Shown here: in pieces, positions 5,506 to 56,173 of the stretch
How the letters are laid out: every line of letters starts with the position of its first letter
Numbering within the stretch: the first letter of the stretch is position 1
DNA from: Burkholderiales bacterium
GTDB taxonomy: Bacteria > Pseudomonadota > Gammaproteobacteria > Burkholderiales > JACQAP01
DNA length: 64,000 nt
Assembly: GCA_035549715.1 (NCBI GenBank)
Contig: DASZQJ010000160.1
Span: 22,688 to 86,687, forward strand
Direction: 5' to 3'
Notes under the pieces: generated by a model
Told to the model about the DNA's origin: nothing
What the model saw: only the letters and a program-made list of their open reading frames with translations
Databases searched by the model: none
Made by a program: the position numbers and the translations under genes

Positions 5506-7275
5506 ATGCCGGGCCGCGTCCCGTTCGCATCCTTCGCCCTGGCCGCCGTGCTCGCATTCGGCGGCTGCGCCTACAAGCCCACGGTGCCACCCTCGCAGGG
5601 CCACATCAACGCCGAGCAGATCCCGCCGAAGGCCCAGGAAAAGATCCTCCCGCCCGTCACCCGCAGCGACTTCGTCCCCCCGCCGCGGCCCCAGGTCAAG
5701 GTCCCGACCTACAGCGTGGTGGTCAATGACGTCCCGGTCCGGGAACTGCTGTTCGCCCTGTCGCGCGACACCAGGCAGAACATCGACGTCCATCCGAACA
5801 TCCAGGGCCTGGTGAGCCTGAACGCGATCGACGAGACCCTGCCCGCGATCCTGGAGCGCATCGCCCAGCAGGTGAACCTGCGCTACCGCACCGAGGGCAA
5901 GACCATCCTCGTCGTGCCCGACACCCCCTACTTCAAGACCTACCGCGTCAACTACGTGAACATGGCGCGCGACACGACCTCCAGCATCGGCGTGAGCGGT
6001 GACATCAGCGGCAGTTCGACCGCAACCGGCCAGAGCGGCGCCCAGAGCCAGAGCAGCAGCACCTCCAGCACCAAGGTCGACACCCGGTCGGTGAACAACT
6101 TCTGGGATGTGCTGCGCCAGAATGTCGAGGCCATCCTGTCGGCCAGCAAAGCCATGTACCAGAGCGCCGACCAGCGCGCGGCGCAGGCCGAAGCGGCCCG
6201 CGCGGCGCGCGAGGAACGCATCGCCCAGGCCGAAGCCGTGTCCCGCGCCGGCGCCAACGCCGAGAAGCTCTTCAGCGCGGCCTTCGCCCCCGGGACGGCG
6301 CCGACGGACGTCAAGAACGACATCGTCGTCAACCCCGTCACCGGGACCATCACGGTGCTCGGAACGGAAAAACAGCAGGCGCTGGTCCAGCAGTACCTGG
6401 AAAGCGTGGGCTCGGCCTCGCAGCGCCAGGTGCTGATCGAGGCCACGATCGCGGAAGTGCAGCTGTCGAATGCCTACCAGGCGGGCGTGGACTGGAGCCG
6501 GATCGCCAGCGGCACGGGTTTCACGTTCAACCAGCAGCTTCTCGGCACCAACCTCGGCACCGCGCCCCGCATGGTGGTCGGGTACACGAATCCGACCTCC
6601 GACGTGGGCAACATCTCCGCGTCGATCCGGCTCCTCGAGCAGTTCGGCAACACCCGCGTCCTGTCGAGCCCGAAGCTGATGGCGGTGAACAACCAGTCCG
6701 CGCTGCTCAAGGTCGTCGACAACATCGTCTACTTCAACATCGAAGCCAACACCAACTCGAACCAGACGACCACGACCACGACTTTCACGACCACGGCCAA
6801 GACGGTGCCGGTGGGCCTGATGATGAGCGTGCTGCCGCAGATCACCGAGTCCGGCATGGTCAACCTGACGATCCGCCCGACCATCTCCAGCGTGATCCGG
6901 TTCGTGCGCGATCCGAATCCCTCGCTGCAGTTCACCCCGGACGGCACGCCGCTGCCCACCCCGATCGCGAGCCTGGTGCCCGAGATCCAGGTGCGCGAAA
7001 TGGAATCCGTGCTGCAGGCCGGCAGCGGCCAGACCATCGTGCTGGGCGGATTGATGCAGGACAACGTCAAGCGCAACCGGGACCAGGTGCCCGGCCTGGG
7101 GAACATTCCCCGCGTCGGCGAGGCCTTCCAGTTCCGCGACGAGGATGTCACCAAGACGGAAATCGTGATCTTCCTCAAGCCCACGATCATCAGCAACCCT
7201 TCGCTGGATAGCGACGAGCTCAGGATGTTCCAGCGCTTCCTGCCGGTCGTCGACAAGACCGGAAAGTCGCCATGA
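5506..7275 (+). CDS. Secretin, MshL-like lipoprotein (type IV pilus/T2SS outer-membrane channel)
   Basis: ORF 5416..7275. Internal ATG 5506 gives MPGRVPFASFALAAVLAFGGC with a lipobox. Secretin C-domain motifs VLSSPKLMAVNNQSALLKV, GGLMQD, VPGLGNIPRVG, IVIFLKPTII. The start could instead be 5416. Confidence 0.85.
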   Translation: MPGRVPFASFALAAVLAFGGCAYKPTVPPSQGHINAEQIPPKAQEKILPPVTRSDFVPPPRPQVKVPTYSVVVNDVPVRELLFALSRDTRQNIDVHPNIQGLVSLNAIDETLPAILERIAQQVNLRYRTEGKTILVVPDTPYFKTYRVNYVNMARDTTSSIGVSGDISGSSTATGQSGAQSQSSSTSSTKVDTRSVNNFWDVLRQNVEAILSASKAMYQSADQRAAQAEAARAAREERIAQAEAVSRAGANAEKLFSAAFAPGTAPTDVKNDIVVNPVTGTITVLGTEKQQALVQQYLESVGSASQRQVLIEATIAEVQLSNAYQAGVDWSRIASGTGFTFNQQLLGTNLGTAPRMVVGYTNPTSDVGNISASIRLLEQFGNTRVLSSPKLMAVNNQSALLKVVDNIVYFNIEANTNSNQTTTTTTFTTTAKTVPVGLMMSVLPQITESGMVNLTIRPTISSVIRFVRDPNPSLQFTPDGTPLPTPIASLVPEIQVREMESVLQAGSGQTIVLGGLMQDNVKRNRDQVPGLGNIPRVGEAFQFRDEDVTKTEIVIFLKPTIISNPSLDSDELRMFQRFLPVVDKTGKSP

Positions 7276-8672
7276 GCCTGCTGCTCCAGGCCCTGCAGAA
7301 GGCGTCCAAGAATCGCGAGGACGGCGCGGAGCCGGGCCCCGGCCCCGACCCGCTGGATTCCGAAGAGTTGTCGCTGGAGCCGCTCGGCGCCGCCGCGCAG
7401 GGCGAGGCGCCCCGGGAAGCTTCGGTGGCCGCCGCGCCTTCAGCCACACCGGCGCAGGCCGCCGCCATGATGCAGGTGAGCCGCGCTCCCGCCTTCGACC
7501 CGATCGAGTATGCGCGCGAGCATTACATGCTCATGTTCATCGCGATCGCGTTCCTGTTCGCCGCCGGCTACGGCGGCTACGTGTACGTCCAGGTCTCGAA
7601 TCCGTCCTGGCTGCGCAGGTCCGCGCCGCCGCCACCACCGCCGCTTGCGTCGGCGCCAGCGCCCGCGCCGGCAGCGAGCGAACCCGCAAGCGCCAAGATC
7701 AGCGGCATCCCCTCGAGCATGCAGACGCCGCCGGCCCAGGCAGCAGCCCCCGTACAAACGCCGCCGGCGGCCCAGGCCGTCGCGCAGGCGCAGCCCGCGG
7801 CGCCGGAGCAACACGCTTCGCCCGCCCAGCCTGCCCCGCAAGCCGCCGCGCCGGCCGAGGCGCCGAAGCCGGCACCCGCCGTTTCCGCGCCGGCCGAAGC
7901 GAGACCCCTGGTCAAGCAACCGGTGATCGCCGCCGTACCGTCGGCGGCGCCGCGCGCGGCTGCGTCGAAGCCTCGCCGCGCCGCGGAAGACACCGTCGTG
8001 CGCCAGGTGGACGAGGACGGCATCGAGACCGTCGTGCTGAAACCGGCCGCGCCCGCTCGCAACGCCTCCGCCGCGGAAAAGCCGGTGGTCGCCGAATCGC
8101 CCTCGGACCTCATGCGCGCCTACGAGGCGCTGCAGGCCGGCGACAGCGCGCAGGCGAGGACCCTTTACGAGCAGGTGCTCAAATCCGACCCGCGCAACAT
8201 CGACGCCCTGCTCGGCCTCGGCGCCATCGCCTGGAAGGACGGCCGCATCGACGAAGCCATGCAGCACTACCAGCGGGTGCTGGAGCTCGAGCCGCGCAAC
8301 ACCTACGCCCAGGCGGGGCTGATCGCCATGGTCGGCAGCGCCGACCCGGCCGCGAGCGAGACGCGGCTGCGCCAGCTGATCGCGCGCGATCCCTCCGGTT
8401 TCCTGTATTTCACGCTGGGCAACCTGTATGCGGACCAGGGCCTGTGGCCCGCCGCGCAGCAGGCATACTTCCAGGCCTACCAGTCGCAGCCGGAGAACCC
8501 GGATTACGCGTTCAACCTTGCGGTGGGCCTGGAGCACATCGGCCAGGCCAGGCCGGCGCTGGAGTACTACCGCAAGGCGCTCGACCTTTCGTTCCGCAAG
8601 GGACGCGCCAACTTCGACCAGAGCCTCGTCATCCAGCGCGTCGGCCAGCTATCATCCCGCGTCGAGCAATAG
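7272..8672 (+). CDS. GspB/ExeB/MshN-like protein: conserved N-terminal peptide, TM, long Ala/Pro-rich spacer, C-terminal TPR repeats
   Basis: N-terminus MSLLLQALQKASKNRE resembles the GspB/ExeB MSYILDALRK motif. TM segment MLMFIAIAFLFAAGYGGYVYV. TPR-like repeats ARTLYEQVLKSDPRNIDALLGLG, AMQHYQRVLELEPRN, ALEYYRKALDL. 4-nt overlap with the secretin gene. Confidence 0.7.
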   Translation: MSLLLQALQKASKNREDGAEPGPGPDPLDSEELSLEPLGAAAQGEAPREASVAAAPSATPAQAAAMMQVSRAPAFDPIEYAREHYMLMFIAIAFLFAAGYGGYVYVQVSNPSWLRRSAPPPPPPLASAPAPAPAASEPASAKISGIPSSMQTPPAQAAAPVQTPPAAQAVAQAQPAAPEQHASPAQPAPQAAAPAEAPKPAPAVSAPAEARPLVKQPVIAAVPSAAPRAAASKPRRAAEDTVVRQVDEDGIETVVLKPAAPARNASAAEKPVVAESPSDLMRAYEALQAGDSAQARTLYEQVLKSDPRNIDALLGLGAIAWKDGRIDEAMQHYQRVLELEPRNTYAQAGLIAMVGSADPAASETRLRQLIARDPSGFLYFTLGNLYADQGLWPAAQQAYFQAYQSQPENPDYAFNLAVGLEHIGQARPALEYYRKALDLSFRKGRANFDQSLVIQRVGQLSSRVEQ

Positions 8673-13155: not shown

Positions 13156-13772
13156 GCATGAACCTCGGCCTGCGCGACTTCCTCTCCATGCGCCTGCCGA
13201 TGGCGGTGCTCCTGGCCGTCATCGTCGCCTCGGTGGCCATGGTCCGCTACACGTCGATGCAGAACGCCGCGGCGGAGCAGGAGCGCCGCGCCCAGGCCAA
13301 TGCCACGCGCGAGGCGCAGGTGCGGGTCGAGAAATCCGGCCAGGAGAAGGCCGTCATCCTCGAGTTCCTCCCCGCCTACCAGAAGCTGCAGGCCGAGGGC
13401 CTGGTCGGCGACGAGCAGCGCCTGGAATGGATCGAGGCCCTGCGCAAGGCCAACAGGCAGGCAGGCCTGTTCGGCGTGAGCTACCAGCTCGAGCCGCGCA
13501 AGGCCTTCCCGGTGCAGGCCATCGTCAACCCCATGGCGCAGCACATCCAGACCTCCGACATGAAGCTCGCCTTCGGCCTGATGCACGAGGGCGACCTGAT
13601 GAAATTCCTCGACGCGCTCGCCGCCCAGAAGAGCGGCCTGTTCCTGGTGCGGCGCTGCGCCGTGGACCGGCCGGTGCGCACTGACACGCCGCCCGCGCCG
13701 CGCCAGGCGAACCTCACCGCCAAGTGCGAGCTGTCGTGGCTGACCATCGCCCCCGGAAAGGCCGGATCATGA
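13152..13772 (+). CDS. PilO/GspM/MshJ-like bitopic assembly protein
   Basis: 206 aa. N-terminal TM MRLPMAVLLAVIVASVAMV followed by coiled-coil AAAEQERRAQANATREAQV. 4-nt overlap with the upstream gene. Context-based call. Confidence 0.5.
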   Translation: MSMNLGLRDFLSMRLPMAVLLAVIVASVAMVRYTSMQNAAAEQERRAQANATREAQVRVEKSGQEKAVILEFLPAYQKLQAEGLVGDEQRLEWIEALRKANRQAGLFGVSYQLEPRKAFPVQAIVNPMAQHIQTSDMKLAFGLMHEGDLMKFLDALAAQKSGLFLVRRCAVDRPVRTDTPPAPRQANLTAKCELSWLTIAPGKAGS

Positions 13773-23832: not shown

Positions 23833-23950
23833 GGACGGAGGACGGAGGACGAAAGACGGCGTGCTGCGTACTGAGTGCTGCGTGCTGCGTGGGCGCAGGT
23901 GCGTCGGGGCCTGGGGTCCTTACTCAGCACTCAGCACGCAGCACGCAGTA
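23833..23950. repeat. Inverted arrays of degenerate heptamer tandem repeats (long hairpin potential), locus A
   Basis: GGACGGA GGACGGA GGACGAA AGACGGC then GTGCTGC GTACTGA GTGCTGC GTGCTGC GTG (23833-23891). Partner tactcagcactcagcacgcagcacgcagta (23921-23950). 23869-23891 pairs with 23928-23950 at 21 of 23 positions. 36-nt loop. Confidence 0.85.
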
Positions 23951-24043
23951 CCCAGCATGCTTTCCCCGGCACGCCTTTCCCGGTTCCCGGTACGCCGCAC
24001 GGCGTCCTGAACCCCTGCCCTTGTGGCGGTATACTCGTCCGAC

Positions 24044-33486: not shown

Positions 33487-33632
33487 CACCACAGAGGCAC
33501 AGAGGACACAGGGAAAGCAGGAAAAACTCGGCTTGACGATTGCAGGCGTTGGCCCGGAACGTAACGGCATGCCCCTCGTATCCCTACACTCCTGATCCGC
33601 CTTTCCTCTGTGTCCTCTGTGCCTCTGTGGTG
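33487..33632. repeat. Inverted repeat built from CACAGAGG-type short tandem units, locus B
   Basis: caccacagaggcacagaggacacag (33487-33511) is the perfect reverse complement of ctgtgtcctctgtgcctctgtggtg (33608-33632), 25/25. It extends by GGAAAG/CTTTCC with a 1-nt bulge. About 85-96 nt central region. Confidence 0.9.
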
Positions 33633-34705
33633 CGTATTGTCGTAGATACGCTGGCGTCCGGCGCGAGGCCGCGCAGGATGCCCCGCACCGGCGCCGGCAG
33701 CGCGGCGTCGAGCGTTTCTTCCAGGTTCAGCCACATGGCGCCGGGCGCCTGGGCCCGGGGCTCCACGCGCTGGACGCGAAGCACGGCGGGCCGGATGGTG
33801 AGGCCGAAGTGCGTGAAGCCGTGGCGCACGTCGGGCAGCATCGCCTCGATTGTTGCCTCGACGCCGAAGCGTTCCCGGGCAATGGCTTGCGCCTGCGTCG
33901 CATCCGCCACTTCAGGAAAGCTCCACAGGCCGCCCCAGATGCCGGGCGAAGGCCGCTTTTCCAGCAGTACTTCCCCGCCCCGGCGCAGGATCAGCATCAC
34001 GGTGGATTTCTCCGGCAACGCTTTTCGCGGCCGCGGCGAGGGCAGTTCCTCCGTTCGTCCCTGCGCGTAGGCGACGCAATCGCCCCGCAACGGGCAGGCC
34101 TCGCAGCGCGGGCGCCCGCGCGTGCAGACGGTGGCGCCGAGGTCCATCAAGCCCTGCGTGTAGGCCTCGACGTCCTCCGCCGGCAGCAGGGCCTCGGCGC
34201 GCAGCCAGAGCTGCTTCTCGACGGACGGCGTGCCCGGGAAGCCTTCGATGCCGAAATAGCGCGCGAGCACGCGCTTGACGTTGCCATCGAGGATGGCGTG
34301 GCGCGCGCCGAAGGCGAACACCGCGATGGCGCCCGCCGTCGAACGGCCGATGCCCGGCAGGTCGACGATCGCGTCGAAGTCCTCGGGGAAGCGGCCGCCG
34401 TGCTCGGCGGCCATGCGTTGCGCGGCCGCGTGCAGGTTGCGCGCCCGCGCGTAATAGCCGAGCCCGCTCCAGAGAGAGAGCACGTCGTCCTCGGCCGCGC
34501 GGGCGAGGCTGGCGATGTCGGGAAAGCGCCCGGTGAAGCGCAGGTAGTAGGGAATCACAGCGGAGACCTGCGTCTGCTGCAGCATGATCTCGGAGAGCCA
34601 GACGCGATAGGGATCGCGCACCTGCCAGGGCAGGTCGTGGCGGCCGGCCTGGCGCTGCCACGCGACCACGCGCGCGGCGAACGTGCTGTCCGGCGCGCCG
34701 TCCAT
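33584..34705 (-). CDS. mutY: A/G-specific adenine DNA glycosylase MutY
   Basis: HhH-GPD (LPGIGRSTAGAI), 4Fe-4S cluster Cys (CTRGRPRCEACPLRGDC), NUDIX-like C-domain. The last ~16 codons are encoded by repeat locus B. Confidence 0.9.
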   Translation of the reverse strand: MDGAPDSTFAARVVAWQRQAGRHDLPWQVRDPYRVWLSEIMLQQTQVSAVIPYYLRFTGRFPDIASLARAAEDDVLSLWSGLGYYARARNLHAAAQRMAAEHGGRFPEDFDAIVDLPGIGRSTAGAIAVFAFGARHAILDGNVKRVLARYFGIEGFPGTPSVEKQLWLRAEALLPAEDVEAYTQGLMDLGATVCTRGRPRCEACPLRGDCVAYAQGRTEELPSPRPRKALPEKSTVMLILRRGGEVLLEKRPSPGIWGGLWSFPEVADATQAQAIARERFGVEATIEAMLPDVRHGFTHFGLTIRPAVLRVQRVEPRAQAPGAMWLNLEETLDAALPAPVRGILRGLAPDASVSTTIRTTEAQRTQRKGGSGV

Positions 34706-45681: not shown

Positions 45682-45686
45682 GCCGC

Positions 45687-45719
45687 CACCCGCCACTCGT
45701 CACCCGCCACTCGTCACTA
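45687..45719. repeat. Tandem 14-nt (2 x heptamer) repeat in the thiS-thiG spacer, locus D
   Basis: CACCCGCCACTCGT CACCCGCCACTCGT CACTA. Heptamer phase CACCCGC/CACTCGT. No inverted partner found nearby. Confidence 0.85.
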
Positions 45720-52121: not shown

Positions 52122-52988
52122 ATGATCTACAGCATGACCGGCTACGCCGTCGCCGCGGCCGAGCTGCCCTTCGGATCGCTCAACCTCGAGCTGCGCTCGG
52201 TCAACCACCGCTACCTGGACATCCAGTTCCGCATCCCCGACGAGCTGCGCGCGCTCGAGTCCGGCATGCGGGAGATGGCCACGGCGCGCATCAGCCGCGG
52301 CAAGGTGGAGGTGCGCATGGCGGTCGCCAAGGCGCCGGCCTCGCCTTCCAGCCTGCAGCTCGACGGCACCCTGCTCGTGCAGCTGCGCAAGCTCGACGAG
52401 GGCGTGCGCGCGGCCATGCCGCAGAGCGCGCCGCTGTCGGTGGCGGACGTGCTGCGCTGGCCGGGCATGCTCGGCAACGACGACCTCGAGGCCGGCAAGC
52501 TGCAGGAGGCGTGCAACGGCCTGTTCACGCGGGCGCTCGACGACCTGACCGCCATGCGCGCCCGCGAAGGCGCCAAGTTGAAGCAGATCCTGCTCGAGCG
52601 CATCGATTCCATGGAGGCGCTGGTCAGGCGCGTCGCCCCGCGCATGCCGCAGCTGGTGGCCTCGTACAAGGAAAAGCTCTCCACGCGGCTCAAGGATGCG
52701 ATGGTCAACATGGACGACGACCGGCTCAAGCAGGAGCTGGTGCTGTTCGCCTCCAAGATCGACGTCGACGAGGAGCTGTCGCGCCTCACCACCCACTTCG
52801 GCGAGATCCGCCGCATCCTCGACAAGGGCGGCGCGGTGGGCAAGCGCCTCGACTTCCTGATGCAGGAGCTCAACCGGGAGGCCAACACGCTGGGCTCGAA
52901 ATCGGTGGACGTGGAAGTCACGCAGACCTCGATGGACCTCAAGGTGCTCATCGAGCAGATGCGCGAGCAGATCCAGAATATCGAATAG
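52122..52988 (+). CDS. yicC: YicC family stress-induced protein (endoribonuclease YicC-like)
   Basis: MIYSMTGYA...LELRSVNHRYLD...C-terminus EVTQTSMDLKVLIEQMREQIQNIE. Confidence 0.9.
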   Translation: MIYSMTGYAVAAAELPFGSLNLELRSVNHRYLDIQFRIPDELRALESGMREMATARISRGKVEVRMAVAKAPASPSSLQLDGTLLVQLRKLDEGVRAAMPQSAPLSVADVLRWPGMLGNDDLEAGKLQEACNGLFTRALDDLTAMRAREGAKLKQILLERIDSMEALVRRVAPRMPQLVASYKEKLSTRLKDAMVNMDDDRLKQELVLFASKIDVDEELSRLTTHFGEIRRILDKGGAVGKRLDFLMQELNREANTLGSKSVDVEVTQTSMDLKVLIEQMREQIQNIE

Positions 52989-53110
52989 CCGTGAGGCGAC
53001 AGGCGTGAGGCGAGAGGCGTGACGAGCAATATCCCCGCAGGCGCGCCGCGCCTGGCGCCAGGCCGGGTTGCATTTCTTCGCCTCACGCCTCACGCCTCAC
53101 GCCTCACGCC
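52989..53110. repeat. Inverted arrays of GCGTGAG/CGCCTCA heptamer tandem repeats between yicC and gmk, locus C
   Basis: Left ccgtgag gcgacag gcgtgag gcgagag gcgtgac (52989-53024). Right cgcctca x4 + cgcc (53079-53110). About 26-27 of 30-31 aligned positions are complementary. 54-nt GC-rich centre. Confidence 0.85.
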
Positions 53111-53119
53111 TGGATTGCC

Positions 53120-53728
53120 ATGACCGGCAACCTGTTCATCATTTGCGCCCCCTCGGGGGCGGGCAAGACCTCCCTGGTGCGCGCCCTGCTGGAGCGCGAG
53201 CCCGGCGTGCGGCTGTCGATCTCCCACACCACCCGCGCCAGGCGCCCGGGGGAGGAGGACGGCCGGCATTACCACTTCATCACCCGCCCGCAGTTCGAGC
53301 AGATGATCGAGCGCGGCGAGTTCCTGGAGTGCGCGCAGGTGCACGGCAACATGTACGGCACCTCCCAGGGCTGGATCCGCGAGCAGCGGGGCCGGGGCTC
53401 GGACATCGTGCTGGAGATCGACTGGCAGGGGGCCCAGCAGGTGCGGCGCCTGATCCCGGACGCGGTCGGGATCTTCATCCTGCCGCCCTCGCCCGCCACC
53501 CTGCGCCAGCGCCTCACGGACCGGCGCCAGGACAGCCCCGAGGTCATCGAGCGCCGCCTGCAGGCGGCGCGGGGGGAGATCGCCCATGTCGATGAATTCG
53601 ACTATGTTATTATCAACGGGGAGTTTTCCGATGCGGTGGAGGACCTGGTCGCAATCGTGCGCAGCGCGCGATTGCGGCTCGACCGGCAGGTCGAGCGCCA
53701 CCGCGAATTGATCAACAGCCTGAAGTAG
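53120..53728 (+). CDS. gmk: Guanylate kinase
   Basis: LFIICAPSGAGKTSLVRALL, ISHTTRARRPGEEDGRHYHF. Confidence 0.97.
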   Translation: MTGNLFIICAPSGAGKTSLVRALLEREPGVRLSISHTTRARRPGEEDGRHYHFITRPQFEQMIERGEFLECAQVHGNMYGTSQGWIREQRGRGSDIVLEIDWQGAQQVRRLIPDAVGIFILPPSPATLRQRLTDRRQDSPEVIERRLQAARGEIAHVDEFDYVIINGEFSDAVEDLVAIVRSARLRLDRQVERHRELINSLK

Positions 53729-53749: not shown

Positions 53750-53953
53750 ATGGCGCGCATCACCGTTGACGACTGCCTGAAGCACATCCCGAACCGTTTC
53801 GAGCTGACGCTCGCCGCGACCTACCGCGCGCGCCAGCTCGCCACCGGCGGCTCGCCGCTGGTGGACACGAACAAGGACAAGCCCACCGTCATCGCCCTGC
53901 GGGAGATCGCCTTGCAGAAGGTCGGCGTCGAGATCCTCAAGACCCGCACCTAG
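53750..53953 (+). CDS. rpoZ: RNA polymerase omega subunit
   Basis: [30 protein letters not shown]. Confidence 0.97.
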
Positions 53954-54031
53954 GTCGCGGGATCGGGGCGCCGCGCGCGCCCGCCGCTTCAGGAGCCGCC
54001 CACGCACCGGCCGCCCTCGCGAGGGGCCGCC

Positions 54032-56173
54032 ATGGATACCTCCCCGCCGACAATGTCCGAGGCCGAGCTTCTGTTCAAGGATGCAGCCGGCTACCTCAAG
54101 CCGGAGGACGTCGTACAGCTCCAGTCGGCCTACCAGTTCAGCGAGACCGCCCACCACGGGCAATTCCGCAAGTCCGGCGACCCGTACATCTCCCACCCGA
54201 TCGCGGTCGCCAAGATCCTCACCCAGTGGCACCTCGACAGCCAGGCGCTGACGGCGGCGCTGCTGCACGACGTGATGGAGGACACGGCGGTCACCAAGGC
54301 CGAGATCAGCGACCGGTTCGGCAAGCCCGTCGCCGACCTGGTCGACGGCCTGTCCAAGCTCGACCGCATCGAGTTCCAGACCCAGGAGCAGGCCCAGGCG
54401 GAGAACTTCCGCAAGATGCTGCTGGCGATGGCCCGCGACGTGCGCGTCATCCTGATCAAGCTCGCCGACCGCCTGCACAACATGCGCACCCTGCAGGTGA
54501 TGCACCCGAAGAAGCGCGCCCGCATCGCCCGCGAGACCCTGGAGATCTACGCGCCCATCGCGCACCGCCTGGGGCTCAACCAGCTCTACACCGAGCTGCA
54601 GGAGCTGTCGTTCCGGCACCTGTACCCGAACCGCTACCACGTGCTGTCCAAGGCGCTCATGCGCGCCCGCGGCAATCGGCGCGAGGTGGTGGACAAGATC
54701 CTGGAGTCGATCAAGGAGAAGCTCGCCGACAGCCACATCGAGGCGACGGTGCACGGGCGCGAGAAGAACCTCTACAGCATCTACAAGAAGATGCTGGAGA
54801 AGAACCTGTCGTTCGCCGAGGTGTTCGACATCTACGGCTTCCGGGTGGTGGTGCGCGACACGCCCGCCTGCTACCTCGCCCTGGGGGCGCTGCACCAGCT
54901 CTACAAGCCGATCCCGGGCAAGTTCAAGGACTACATCGCCATCCCCAAGGCCAACGGCTACCAGTCCCTGCACACCACGCTGTTCGGCCCCTTCGGCACC
55001 CCGATCGAGGTGCAGATCCGCACCATGGAAATGCACAAGATCGCGGAGGCCGGCGTGGCCTCGCACTGGCTGTACAAGGAGAACGACGCCCAGATCAACG
55101 ACCTGCACCGCAAGACCCACCAGTGGCTGCAGAGCCTGCTGGAGATGCAGTCGGAGTCGGGCGACTCGATCGAGTTCCTCGAGCACCTCAAGGTGGACCT
55201 GTTCCCCGACGAGGTCTACGTGTTCACGCCCAAGGGCAGGATCATGGCGCTGCCGCACGGGGCGACCTGCGTGGACTTCGCGTACGCGGTGCACACCGAC
55301 ATCGGCAACCGCTGCGTGGCGGCCAAGATCAACCACGAGCTCGTGCCCCTGCGCTCGGAGCTCAAGAACGGCGACCGGGTCGAGATCATCACCGCGGTGC
55401 ATGCCAAGCCCAACCCGGCCTGGCTCAACTACGTGACCACCGGCAAGGCCCGCTCGCACATCCGCCATTTCCTCAAGACCATGCAGTACGAGGAATCGGC
55501 GCAGCTGGGCAAGAACCTGCTCAACCAGGCGCTGGTGGCGCTCAAGTCCCCCGGCGCCGACAAGCTCACCGACGTGCAGTGGGAGCGCCTGCTCAAGGAA
55601 AACAGCGCCAAGTCGCGCCAGGAGGTGCTCGCCGACATCGGCCTGGGCAAGCAGCTCGCCATCGTCATCGCGCGCCAGCTGCTCTCCATCGCCGAGCCCA
55701 AGGGTGCGAGGCCGGAAAAGATTCCCGGCAGCCTCATCATCCGCGGCTCCGAAGGCATGGCGCTGCAGTTCGCCAAGTGCTGCCACCCGATCCCCGGCGA
55801 CCCCATCATCGGCTTCCTGAAGAAGGGGCACGGCCTGGTCATCCACACCCACGATTGCCCGGTCGCGCGCAAGACGCGCGGCGATCCCGAAAAGTGGCTC
55901 GACGTGGAATGGGCGCCGGACACCAAGAAGCTGTTCACGGTGAACATCAAGATCGTGGCTTCGAACCAGCGCGGCGTGCTGGCCAAGATCGCCGCGTCGA
56001 TCGCGGAGACCGACTCCAACATCGACAACGTGAGCCAGGAGCCCGGCGACTCCAGCGCCTACGTCGAGATCCACTTCACGCTGCAGGTCACCAACCGGCT
56101 GCACCTCGCGCAGATCATGCGCGGCCTGCGGCGCGTGCCCGAGGTGCTCCGGATCTGGCGCATGAAAGGTTGA
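54032..56173 (+). CDS. spoT: Bifunctional (p)ppGpp synthetase/hydrolase (SpoT/RelA homolog)
   Basis: HD domain HHGQFRKSGDPYISHP, synthetase YQSLHTTLFGPFGTPIEVQIRT, TGS and ACT regions. Position gmk-rpoZ-spoT. Confidence 0.95.
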   Translation: MDTSPPTMSEAELLFKDAAGYLKPEDVVQLQSAYQFSETAHHGQFRKSGDPYISHPIAVAKILTQWHLDSQALTAALLHDVMEDTAVTKAEISDRFGKPVADLVDGLSKLDRIEFQTQEQAQAENFRKMLLAMARDVRVILIKLADRLHNMRTLQVMHPKKRARIARETLEIYAPIAHRLGLNQLYTELQELSFRHLYPNRYHVLSKALMRARGNRREVVDKILESIKEKLADSHIEATVHGREKNLYSIYKKMLEKNLSFAEVFDIYGFRVVVRDTPACYLALGALHQLYKPIPGKFKDYIAIPKANGYQSLHTTLFGPFGTPIEVQIRTMEMHKIAEAGVASHWLYKENDAQINDLHRKTHQWLQSLLEMQSESGDSIEFLEHLKVDLFPDEVYVFTPKGRIMALPHGATCVDFAYAVHTDIGNRCVAAKINHELVPLRSELKNGDRVEIITAVHAKPNPAWLNYVTTGKARSHIRHFLKTMQYEESAQLGKNLLNQALVALKSPGADKLTDVQWERLLKENSAKSRQEVLADIGLGKQLAIVIARQLLSIAEPKGARPEKIPGSLIIRGSEGMALQFAKCCHPIPGDPIIGFLKKGHGLVIHTHDCPVARKTRGDPEKWLDVEWAPDTKKLFTVNIKIVASNQRGVLAKIAASIAETDSNIDNVSQEPGDSSAYVEIHFTLQVTNRLHLAQIMRGLRRVPEVLRIWRMKG

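Follow-up and report, generated by a model that had tools for sequence, protein, structure and literature searches.

Locus C is the structured repeat between yicC and gmk in the stretch of Burkholderiales DNA analysed here (64,000 nucleotides (nt), called the window below), and it consists of two inverted arrays of 7-base repeats that are real and not random. We read it, with a probability of about 0.6, as a member without an open reading frame (ORF) of a widespread class of intergenic inserts that resemble the intervening sequences (IVSs) of 23S rRNA and, in this case, one that sits in a formerly coupled yicC/gmk junction. It adds a new member, with a new unit, to a known but unexplained kind of bacterial repeat. 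In our view it is above all an insert that is tolerated, that may once have been mobile and that has side-effects on operon expression, rather than a regulator built for gmk.

Heptamer arrays, both paired and single, in Xanthomonas, Geobacter, Beggiatoaceae and cyanobacteria have been reported since at least 2007-2015, and there is no accepted explanation for them. The comparisons that start from locus C tie such arrays to the PF05635 protein family, because every one of the 14 PF05635 genes examined is flanked by them. The inserts are placed precisely where two genes are coupled, and they take away the Shine-Dalgarno (SD) sequence of the gene downstream. This strict association, together with the loss of the downstream SD, is of more interest than locus C itself.

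The arrays of locus C

The first-pass annotation, which was made from the sequence alone, had described five heptamers after the yicC stop codon and four copies of CGCCTCA plus CGCC ending 9 nt before the gmk ATG, with the element filling essentially the whole spacer. The sequence agrees with this description (Table 1). Locus C takes up 123 of the 131 nt that separate the yicC stop from the gmk ATG; its 5' arm begins directly after the yicC TAG and its 3' arm ends 8-9 nt short of the gmk ATG. The central segment is GC-rich and has palindromes of its own, as had been noted, but it is 55 nt long and not 54.

Tandem Repeats Finder (TRF) reports the 3' array with period 7, 4.7 copies, 100% matches and a score of 66. 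The 5' array has 3.9-5 copies, with 80% matches at period 7 and 94% at period 14; the better fit of period 14 bears out an earlier remark that alternate units of the left array carry the mismatches. In the phase TGAGGCG, every consensus unit of the 5' arm contains TGA and an SD-like GAGG core. An inverted-repeat finder places the arms at 52987-53019 and 53079-53111, each 33 nt long and 59 nt apart. They were said to be largely complementary and they are so at 88% of positions; the best 23-nt stretch within them reaches 96%. The predicted stem consists of segments of 9, 12 and 6 bp with small internal loops between them.

The RNA fold of locus C has an energy of -82.6 kcal/mol (z = -6.1), which none of 200 shuffles equals. 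In 200 second-order Markov versions of the window, which have the same trinucleotide statistics, inverted tandem-array pairs occur on average 0.01 times, against three observed, and period-7 arrays of at least 3.5 copies occur 0.3 times, against six observed. The 14-mer CGCCTCACGCCTCA, with up to two mismatches, is found seven times in the window, every time within locus C, where 1.8 occurrences would be expected by chance. The earlier view that locus C is a genuine structured repeat is supported, and the observation is far from chance. The locus also belongs, as proposed, to a family with two sister loci in the window (A and B in Table 1), and it is repeated elsewhere, both at the orthologous spacer of two related genomes and on at least 120 metagenome contigs.

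A search of Rfam at permissive thresholds returned no rRNA or other family at locus C. Matches to miRNA hairpins (24-25 bits, against gathering scores of 64-105) are sub-threshold, generic-hairpin artefacts.

The yicC-gmk junction in other genomes

The window has a GC content of 68%. Among 185,579 species representatives, the closest Gmk matches are 72-74% identical and come from Burkholderiales and Alcaligenaceae metagenome-assembled genomes (MAGs). The yicC-gmk spacers of two related loci, L002 and L003, have TGAGGCG...CGCCTCA arms that run from the yicC stop to 0-5 nt before the gmk ATG. The number of copies per arm differs between these species, being 5/4.7 in the window and 4.4/3.9 and 3.3/7.4 in L002 and L003. 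The centres of the three show no detectable homology to one another (41-52% identity, compared with 38-53% for shuffled sequences).

Other junctions display other units. L010 has a close variant of the TGAGGCG unit, L005, L031, L050 and L213 have AGGATT-type arms, and L009 and L015 have TAAACNG-type arms. Arms are complementary inside each of these three families and not across them, and they touch the stop and start codons at every array-bearing yicC-gmk locus. In L021, a MAG labelled Bordetella, CATTTAC CATTTAC lies immediately ahead of the gmk ATG, ~20 nt upstream. TRF did not pick up this short array, which is of the L009/L015 type, and so the number of array-bearing junctions is a lower bound. 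The identical Gmk is encoded on only two other contigs, of which one shares the 131-nt spacer and the second begins inside the right arm. Taken together, these alignments show an element that is either inherited or recurrent at yicC-gmk in several Burkholderiales lineages, in which the arm units are kept and the centres replaced.

Two genomes have no element. In L004, whose Gmk has the top identity to that of the window (74%), yicC and gmk overlap in GTGA, and L007 has a 10-nt spacer with a GGAG SD. Therefore, the ancestral yicC/gmk junction was tight, coupled and co-transcribed, and the element is an insertion. The arms then abut the stop and start codons because the insertion went into a spacer of at most 10 nt. 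We infer that yicC and gmk are co-transcribed across the element.

PF05635 genes between inverted arrays

The yicC-gmk arms of L005, L031 and L213 enclose a promoterless ORF of ~120 amino acids that matches both PF05635 (23S rRNA intervening-sequence protein) and TIGR02436 (four-helix-bundle protein) with E ~1e-40; we refer to it as FHB. Homologues found by protein similarity lie at thyA-folA in Gallionella-like MAGs, at ruvA-ruvB, and at accB-accC in Xanthomonas, where the protein is of the crystallised XCC0516 type. At each of these three junctions a purine-rich array starts at the upstream stop codon, and a complementary array runs up to the downstream start codon or stops just short of it. 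Period-7 arrays are present on both sides in 14 of the 14 FHB loci examined, including all eight that were retrieved by protein homology alone. The GGGAATC arrays that flank XCC0516 belong to the paired repeats that Rehm et al. (2015) reported. Full-length forms total about 430-530 nt.

The arm unit of the window itself occurs around FHB genes. L100 has an intact FHB gene inside TGAGGCG x7...CGCCTCA x5, and L147 has a frameshifted copy between TGAGGCG/CGCCTCA arms. On this comparison, ORF-less hairpins, decaying copies and full copies make up a series. Between Xanthomonas species, the non-coding parts of the element show 93% identity, similar to that of coding DNA, compared with 68-76% for neighbouring intergenic DNA (p = 4e-7).

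FHB proteins are described as pentameric (Lin et al. 2006, as cited in PMC3936711), and the structures 2GSC and 2RLD have five chains each. The family is very large; a single search gave 4,526 proteins at E <= 1e-20. To our knowledge, PF05635 proteins have no known function outside diversity-generating retroelements. Genes annotated as 23S_rRNA_IVP have been found wedged between cas genes (Zhang and Ye 2013, PMC3936711), a placement that would fit a gene that rides inside other operons. We found no published link between PF05635 genes and heptamer arrays, which is weak evidence given incomplete coverage of the literature (subscription journals), and the link may be new.

Several details of these loci deserve mention. 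The FHB ORF ends inside the 3' arm in L005 and just upstream of it in L031. In L217 (ruvA-FHB-ruvB) the 3' heptamer arm (2830-2893) lies within the FHB coding region and encodes the C-terminal tail, and the FHB stop overlaps the ruvB start (ATGA). In the Xanthomonas arms of L208 and L211 (2924-3000 and 3330-3372), the 6-nt cores GGGAAT and ATTCCC pair while every seventh base is mismatched; a variant unit GGGAGT is mirrored as GACTCCC in the other arm, and the whole pattern is conserved between species. L082, a Gallionella-like MAG, has AGGATTC-type arrays of 14.7 and 17.7 units. Two array pairs lie there at 5888-6053 and 7458-7581, one inside a called gene that resembles dihydrolipoamide dehydrogenase and one beginning exactly at the end of that gene, and there is an ORF-less pair at 13172-13242.

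The same unit on metagenome contigs

CGCCTCA arrays of at least three units occur on at least 120 unrelated metagenome contigs and in many gene contexts. Among the matches listed, about one third have an inverted partner, the order of the arms is always 5'-TGAGGCG...CGCCTCA-3' (34 versus 0 in the opposite order, p = 1e-10), and the arrays typically have 4-5 units with a range of 2-21. The gaps between the arms, in the same matches, cluster at 7-110 nt and at 367-452 nt, the latter being the size of the FHB cargo. The polarity of the arms relative to transcription is meaningless, since a 5'-G-arm...C-arm-3' pair is identical on both strands; the absence of the opposite order is real. Period 7 is the commonest repeat period in 778 kb of related loci. 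No transposase was present among the cargos examined.

Four unrelated contigs share a nested arrangement (L143, 2798-3006; L170, 371-576; L181, 1986-2181; L190, 3989-4169). Inside the TGAGGCG/CGCCTCA arms, inverted arrays of ~10 nt, GGCCACGGAAGCACACGGAAG...CTTCCGTGTGCTTCCGTGGCC, surround a core of ~80 nt, and this structure is conserved on all four. It suggests that one array element was inserted into another.

Loss of the Shine-Dalgarno sequence before gmk

In the 18 nt before the gmk start of the window, the best duplex with the anti-SD is -3.1 kcal/mol and there is no real SD. The median for nine array-bearing yicC-gmk loci is +1.2 kcal/mol, compared with -4.3 kcal/mol for 25 array-free loci (Mann-Whitney p = 1e-4). 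The starts of folA, accC and ruvB downstream of such elements, judged by inspection, are likewise not preceded by an SD motif. At yicC-gmk, the original gmk SD is gone wherever the element is present. Since essential genes lie behind elements without an SD, they must be translated either via coupling across or through the element or in an SD-independent manner. In the window, gmk-rpoZ-spoT is probably expressed via an unusual leader that lacks an SD. The Xanthomonas accB-XCC0516-accC operon offers a culturable system in which both the link between FHB and arrays and the SD loss are directly testable.

Comparison with known repeats and intervening sequences

Cyanobacterial short tandemly repeated repetitive (STRR) heptamers are similar intergenic arrays. 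The closest counterpart of locus C is the GGGAATC heptamer of Xanthomonas (Rehm et al. 2015, PLoS One, PMC4692102). About 90% of its arrays are intergenic and each genome has 70-75 convergent pairs on opposite strands; the G-rich arm comes after a stop codon and the C-rich arm ahead of the next ORF, and most pairs lie between genes of the same orientation. The arrays are transcribed, their positions are conserved while their lengths vary, and a G-quadruplex role has been proposed. Locus C shares with these pairs heptamers in at least three copies, convergent complementary arrays, a purine arm next to the stop codon and a C-rich arm before the ORF. In fact, the pair that flanks the FHB gene at accB-XCC0516-accC has, in our analysis, the same architecture as yicC-gmk. 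However, the host of locus C is an uncultured high-GC betaproteobacterium, and its GCGTGAG and CGCCTCA units have no run of three or more G or C, so the G-quadruplex explanation cannot apply to it. The FHB cargo is unmentioned by Rehm et al. (2015).

The second comparison is with the IVSs of 23S rRNA, as known from Coxiella and Leptospira. In Coxiella burnetii the IVS is 428 nt long, includes an S23p ORF and has a 28-bp terminal stem, within which RNase III cuts (Warrier et al. 2016, PMC4990558). Like such an IVS, the inserts described here would lie in a transcribed unit, and they have a terminal inverted-repeat stem of ~28-33 bp and, in their full-length forms, carry a promoterless PF05635 ORF in the loop. 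They differ in that they are located between protein-coding cistrons, not in helix 25 or 45 of 23S rRNA, and in that their arms are tandem heptamers. In addition, the window copy has no ORF, and RNase III cleavage, which has been shown for IVSs, would be an extrapolation for the inserts.

The 'paired global-regulator sites' of Geobacter metallireducens, classes 1-3, are sites on opposite strands with 3-5 tandem repeats of 7-9 nt (Aklujkar et al. 2009, PMC2700814). They occur at variable distances in intergenic or intra-operon spacers such as proB-proA, and were guessed to bind IHF or HU, with no evidence. The units of loci A and B in the window are of a similar type (ACGGAG, CACAGAGG); however, the units differ and cargo is undescribed in Geobacter. 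Finally, TAACTGA direct repeats in marine Beggiatoaceae and cyanobacteria usually end ~1 nt before a start codon, and a role in translation has been suspected, with CspB-type proteins proposed to bind the heptamers (MacGregor 2015, PMC4679880). They are intergenic heptamers like those of locus C, but are nearly always single direct arrays with one dominant unit per genome; only one inverted set is known among 170 in BOGUAY.

Proposed origin of locus C

The proposed class of inserts would be made of two inverted arrays of a short tandem unit, usually of 7 nt, around a variable centre. Its full-length members would carry a promoterless PF05635 gene between the arms and so resemble the S23p-bearing 23S IVSs, except that they lie between operon genes. 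At yicC/gmk, the insert would have entered a boundary that was translationally coupled and either overlapping or at most 10 nt long. It would be transcribed as part of a yicC-gmk-rpoZ-spoT mRNA and form an imperfect stem of ~33 bp, which would bring the yicC stop and the gmk start together at the base of one helix. If transcribed, the hairpin must form on thermodynamic grounds according to the predicted fold, and it is a plausible and, by analogy with rRNA IVSs, even a likely substrate of RNase III. A cut would free a gmk-rpoZ-spoT mRNA with a short pyrimidine-rich leader and no SD. What keeps the arms alike may be homogenisation of the arrays (slippage), a factor that recognises the unit, or the two together, rather than pair-by-pair selection of the hairpin.

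Several points weigh against this origin. The window has no PF05635 gene or remnant by tblastn, and none near 53 kb; therefore, the FHB ancestry of locus C would have to be deduced from its relatives and from an intermediate like L147. Mobility is unproven, as we found neither a transposase nor a target-site duplication, nor any close strains that form a clear filled/empty pair; the flanks of locus C (ATCGAATAG | TGGATTGCC) have no visible direct repeat, even though the arms do resemble terminal inverted repeats. Loci A, B and C have three unrelated units with no sequence in common, which is awkward for a single recognition factor. Among the metagenome matches listed, about two thirds of the CGCCTCA arrays have no partner of the same unit. 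There is also no covariation of arms in the TGAGGCG family, as arms pair with their own partners at 0.840 and with those of other loci at 0.834 (permutation p = 0.15). Last, the better fold is that of the antisense strand at 10 of 11 loci, and G·U pairs number 44 of 387 in the antisense fold compared with 18 of 369 in the sense fold (p = 0.001).

A broader extension of the proposed origin is doubtful as a whole. Heptamer-array hairpins and PF05635 genes could be one undescribed class of element, an 'IVS of messenger RNAs', which inserts into tiny spacers of coupled operons. The junctions named for it are yicC-gmk, thyA-folA, accB-accC, ruvA-ruvB and also those between cas genes, and the genes are often essential. 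The pentameric FHB protein might bind heptamers, as RNA or DNA, at about one unit per subunit, and ORF-less copies might be satellites that use FHB in trans. Since the insert would replace the downstream SD, expression of gmk-rpoZ-spoT might depend on how the hairpin folds or is processed, or on the binding of FHB. If true, this proposal would account for the surplus of heptanucleotide repeats that has long been noted in bacterial genomes, and it would give the 23S-IVS protein family a function.

Alternative explanations

The first alternative, which we consider unlikely, is that locus C is an RNA device selected by the host for gmk-rpoZ-spoT, whether it terminates or attenuates yicC, serves as a site of processing or stabilisation, or forms a stop-start bridge. 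In the bridge version, terminating ribosomes or the GAGG of the 5' arm would drive gmk translation without a local SD. In phage T4, genes 38 and 25 have 'split' ribosome-binding sites bridged by a hairpin, which count in its favour. So do the very stable predicted fold, the retention of the arm unit across three genomes while the centre was replaced, the absence of an SD at array-bearing gmk genes although gmk is essential, and the finding that 5' arms are mostly SD-like (GAGG, AGGA) and 3' arms anti-SD-like. At all array-bearing loci the arms also lie right against the stop and start codons; however, this is automatic for an insertion into a spacer of at most 10 nt.

The individual functions do not hold up well. 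The first-pass annotation had hinted at a terminator for yicC, but the main stem is followed by GGAUUGCCAUG and not by a U-tract. The sole terminator-like match is a small central hairpin at 53050-53068 (GCCTGGCGCCAGGC plus the tail TGCATTTCTT); it is weak, matches a loose consensus and has no counterpart in L002 or L003. An intrinsic (Rho-independent) terminator was rejected on these grounds. The hint of a gmk promoter is likewise not supported, in that the lone promoter-like match overlaps the gmk start codon. Two other candidates were dropped. Stop codons in all three frames are not a general rule of the 5' arm, since TGAGGCG supplies them and CAGGATT and GGGAATC have no stop triplet, and a specific link to the YicC endoribonuclease is unnecessary, as the same inserts occur at unrelated junctions.

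The pattern of conservation also speaks against an RNA device. Because arms pair no better with their own partners than with arms of other loci, they are alike since both follow the family unit and not through pair-wise maintenance. The G·U asymmetry favours the antisense strand, and the 5' arm is systematically enriched in A relative to the complement of the 3' arm. We found no evolutionary signature of host selection on the hairpin itself. L004, with the highest Gmk identity, does without the element. Locus A lies in a divergent region and so cannot be an intercistronic device, and with locus B in a convergent one, no single operon-level role fits all copies. These two loci and the similar inserts at thyA-folA, accB-accC and ruvA-ruvB also speak against any specific tie to the stringent-response operon. 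There is no evidence of dedicated regulation of gmk-rpoZ-spoT by locus C.

A second alternative, which we hold to be somewhat less probable again, takes the arrays as tandem protein-binding sites in RNA, single-stranded DNA or double-stranded DNA, with the hairpin incidental; the candidate binders are FHB in trans or a protein of nucleoid or cold-shock type. This would account for conservation at the level of the unit without covariation of pairs, for the strict FHB-array association, and for the Xanthomonas cores that pair with every seventh base mismatched. The typical array of 4-5 units also compares well with the pentameric FHB crystals, and both IHF/HU (PMC2700814) and heptamer-binding CspB-type proteins (PMC4679880) have been proposed in the literature. 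However, the window has no FHB gene, its three loci within 64 kb have three unrelated units, array length among the matches listed is as variable as 2-21 units, and an FHB protein of the IVS type is a candidate binder only.

We give little credence to a third alternative, a purely local simple-sequence repeat in which slippage expanded a heptamer and a template switch made the inverted copy, with no mobility, cargo history or function. In many bacteria no class of long simple-sequence repeats is more abundant than heptamers (Mrazek 2007, cited by both PMC4679880 and PMC4692102), and the dominance of period 7 in the related loci, the copy numbers that differ between species and the many unpaired arrays would agree with such an origin. 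It does not explain why one unit, TGAGGCG/CGCCTCA, recurs on so many unrelated contigs in different gene contexts, why the arm order is biased 34:0 in the matches listed, or why an FHB gene has identical arms elsewhere (L100). Nor would it predict nested array-within-array structures or the conservation of Xanthomonas arrays relative to other intergenic DNA.

Repetitive extragenic palindromic (REP) sequences, REPINs and MITEs (miniature inverted-repeat transposable elements) resemble locus C in that they are inverted repeats of ~100 nt that form hairpins in intergenic DNA, often where the neighbouring genes converge or point the same way. Mobilisation by a REP-associated tyrosine transposase (RAYT) or an insertion-sequence transposase is nevertheless very improbable here, for, despite a hairpin of ~120 nt and several hairpin loci in one window, the arms are internally repetitive tandem heptamers and not a single conserved palindrome of 20-40 nt, there is no GTAG-type head, RAYT, visible target-site duplication or transposase among the cargos examined, the three window loci share no sequence, and the locus C unit is found nowhere else in the window.

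Flanking genes and other repeats of the window

The flanking genes are those that the first-pass annotation had named (Table 1); Pfam matches and synteny support all four, as the annotation of L213 has the same order, rph and then yicC-(FHB)-gmk-rpoZ-spoT.

Table 1. Coordinates of locus C, its flanking genes and its sister loci in the window
Feature	Position	Strand	Description
Locus C, 5' arm	52989-53023	+	five heptamers, cCGTGAG GCGACAG GCGTGAG GCGAGAG GCGTGAC (TRF, inverted-repeat finder)
Locus C, centre	53024-53078	+	55 nt, GC-rich; palindromes GGCGCGCC (53040-47) and GCCTGGCGCCAGGC (53050-63)
Locus C, 3' arm	53079-53111	+	CGCCTCA x4.7 (x4 plus CGCC(T)), perfect; reverse complement of the 5'-arm unit
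Linker and start	53112-53122	+	8 nt GGATTGCC, then gmk ATG (53120-53122)
yicC	52122-52988	+	YicC-family endoribonuclease; stop TAG 52986-52988; Pfam PF03755, PF08340, E ~1e-38 to 1e-43
gmk	53120-53728	+	PF00625
rpoZ	53750-53953	+	PF01192
spoT	54032-56173	+	713-aa SpoT-type ORF
Sister locus A	23859-23957		GCGTGCT x4.7 / CAGCACG x4.7, inverted, 34-nt gap; between divergent kefB-like antiporter (-) and SIS/CBS kdsD-like (+) genes
Sister locus B	33490-33629		CACAGAGGA x2.6 / TCCTCTGTG x3.0, inverted, 93-nt gap; between convergent LON-domain (+) and mutY-like (-) genes

Locus A is a composite (23833-23991), in which an unpartnered GGACGGA x3.9 (23833-23859) abuts the inverted pair and a short TTCCCGG x2 follows. 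The unit of locus B, CACAGAGGA, is 9 nt long. The right arm of this locus falls within the 3' end of the listed mutY-like ORF (minus strand, 33584-34705), so that the final codons and stop region of this gene seem to come from the array. A direct-only repeat at 45683-45717 (period 14, CACCCGCCACTCGT x2.2; period 7, CCGCCAC) has no inverted partner, as is the case for about two thirds of the CGCCTCA arrays among the metagenome matches listed, and fills the short spacer from an ORF that ends ...GGG and is thiS-like by eye to the next ORF. In the rpoZ-spoT spacer (53990-54031), a loose repeat with a 15-nt period (~2.7 copies, 74% matches), also with no inverted partner, ends at the spoT ATG.

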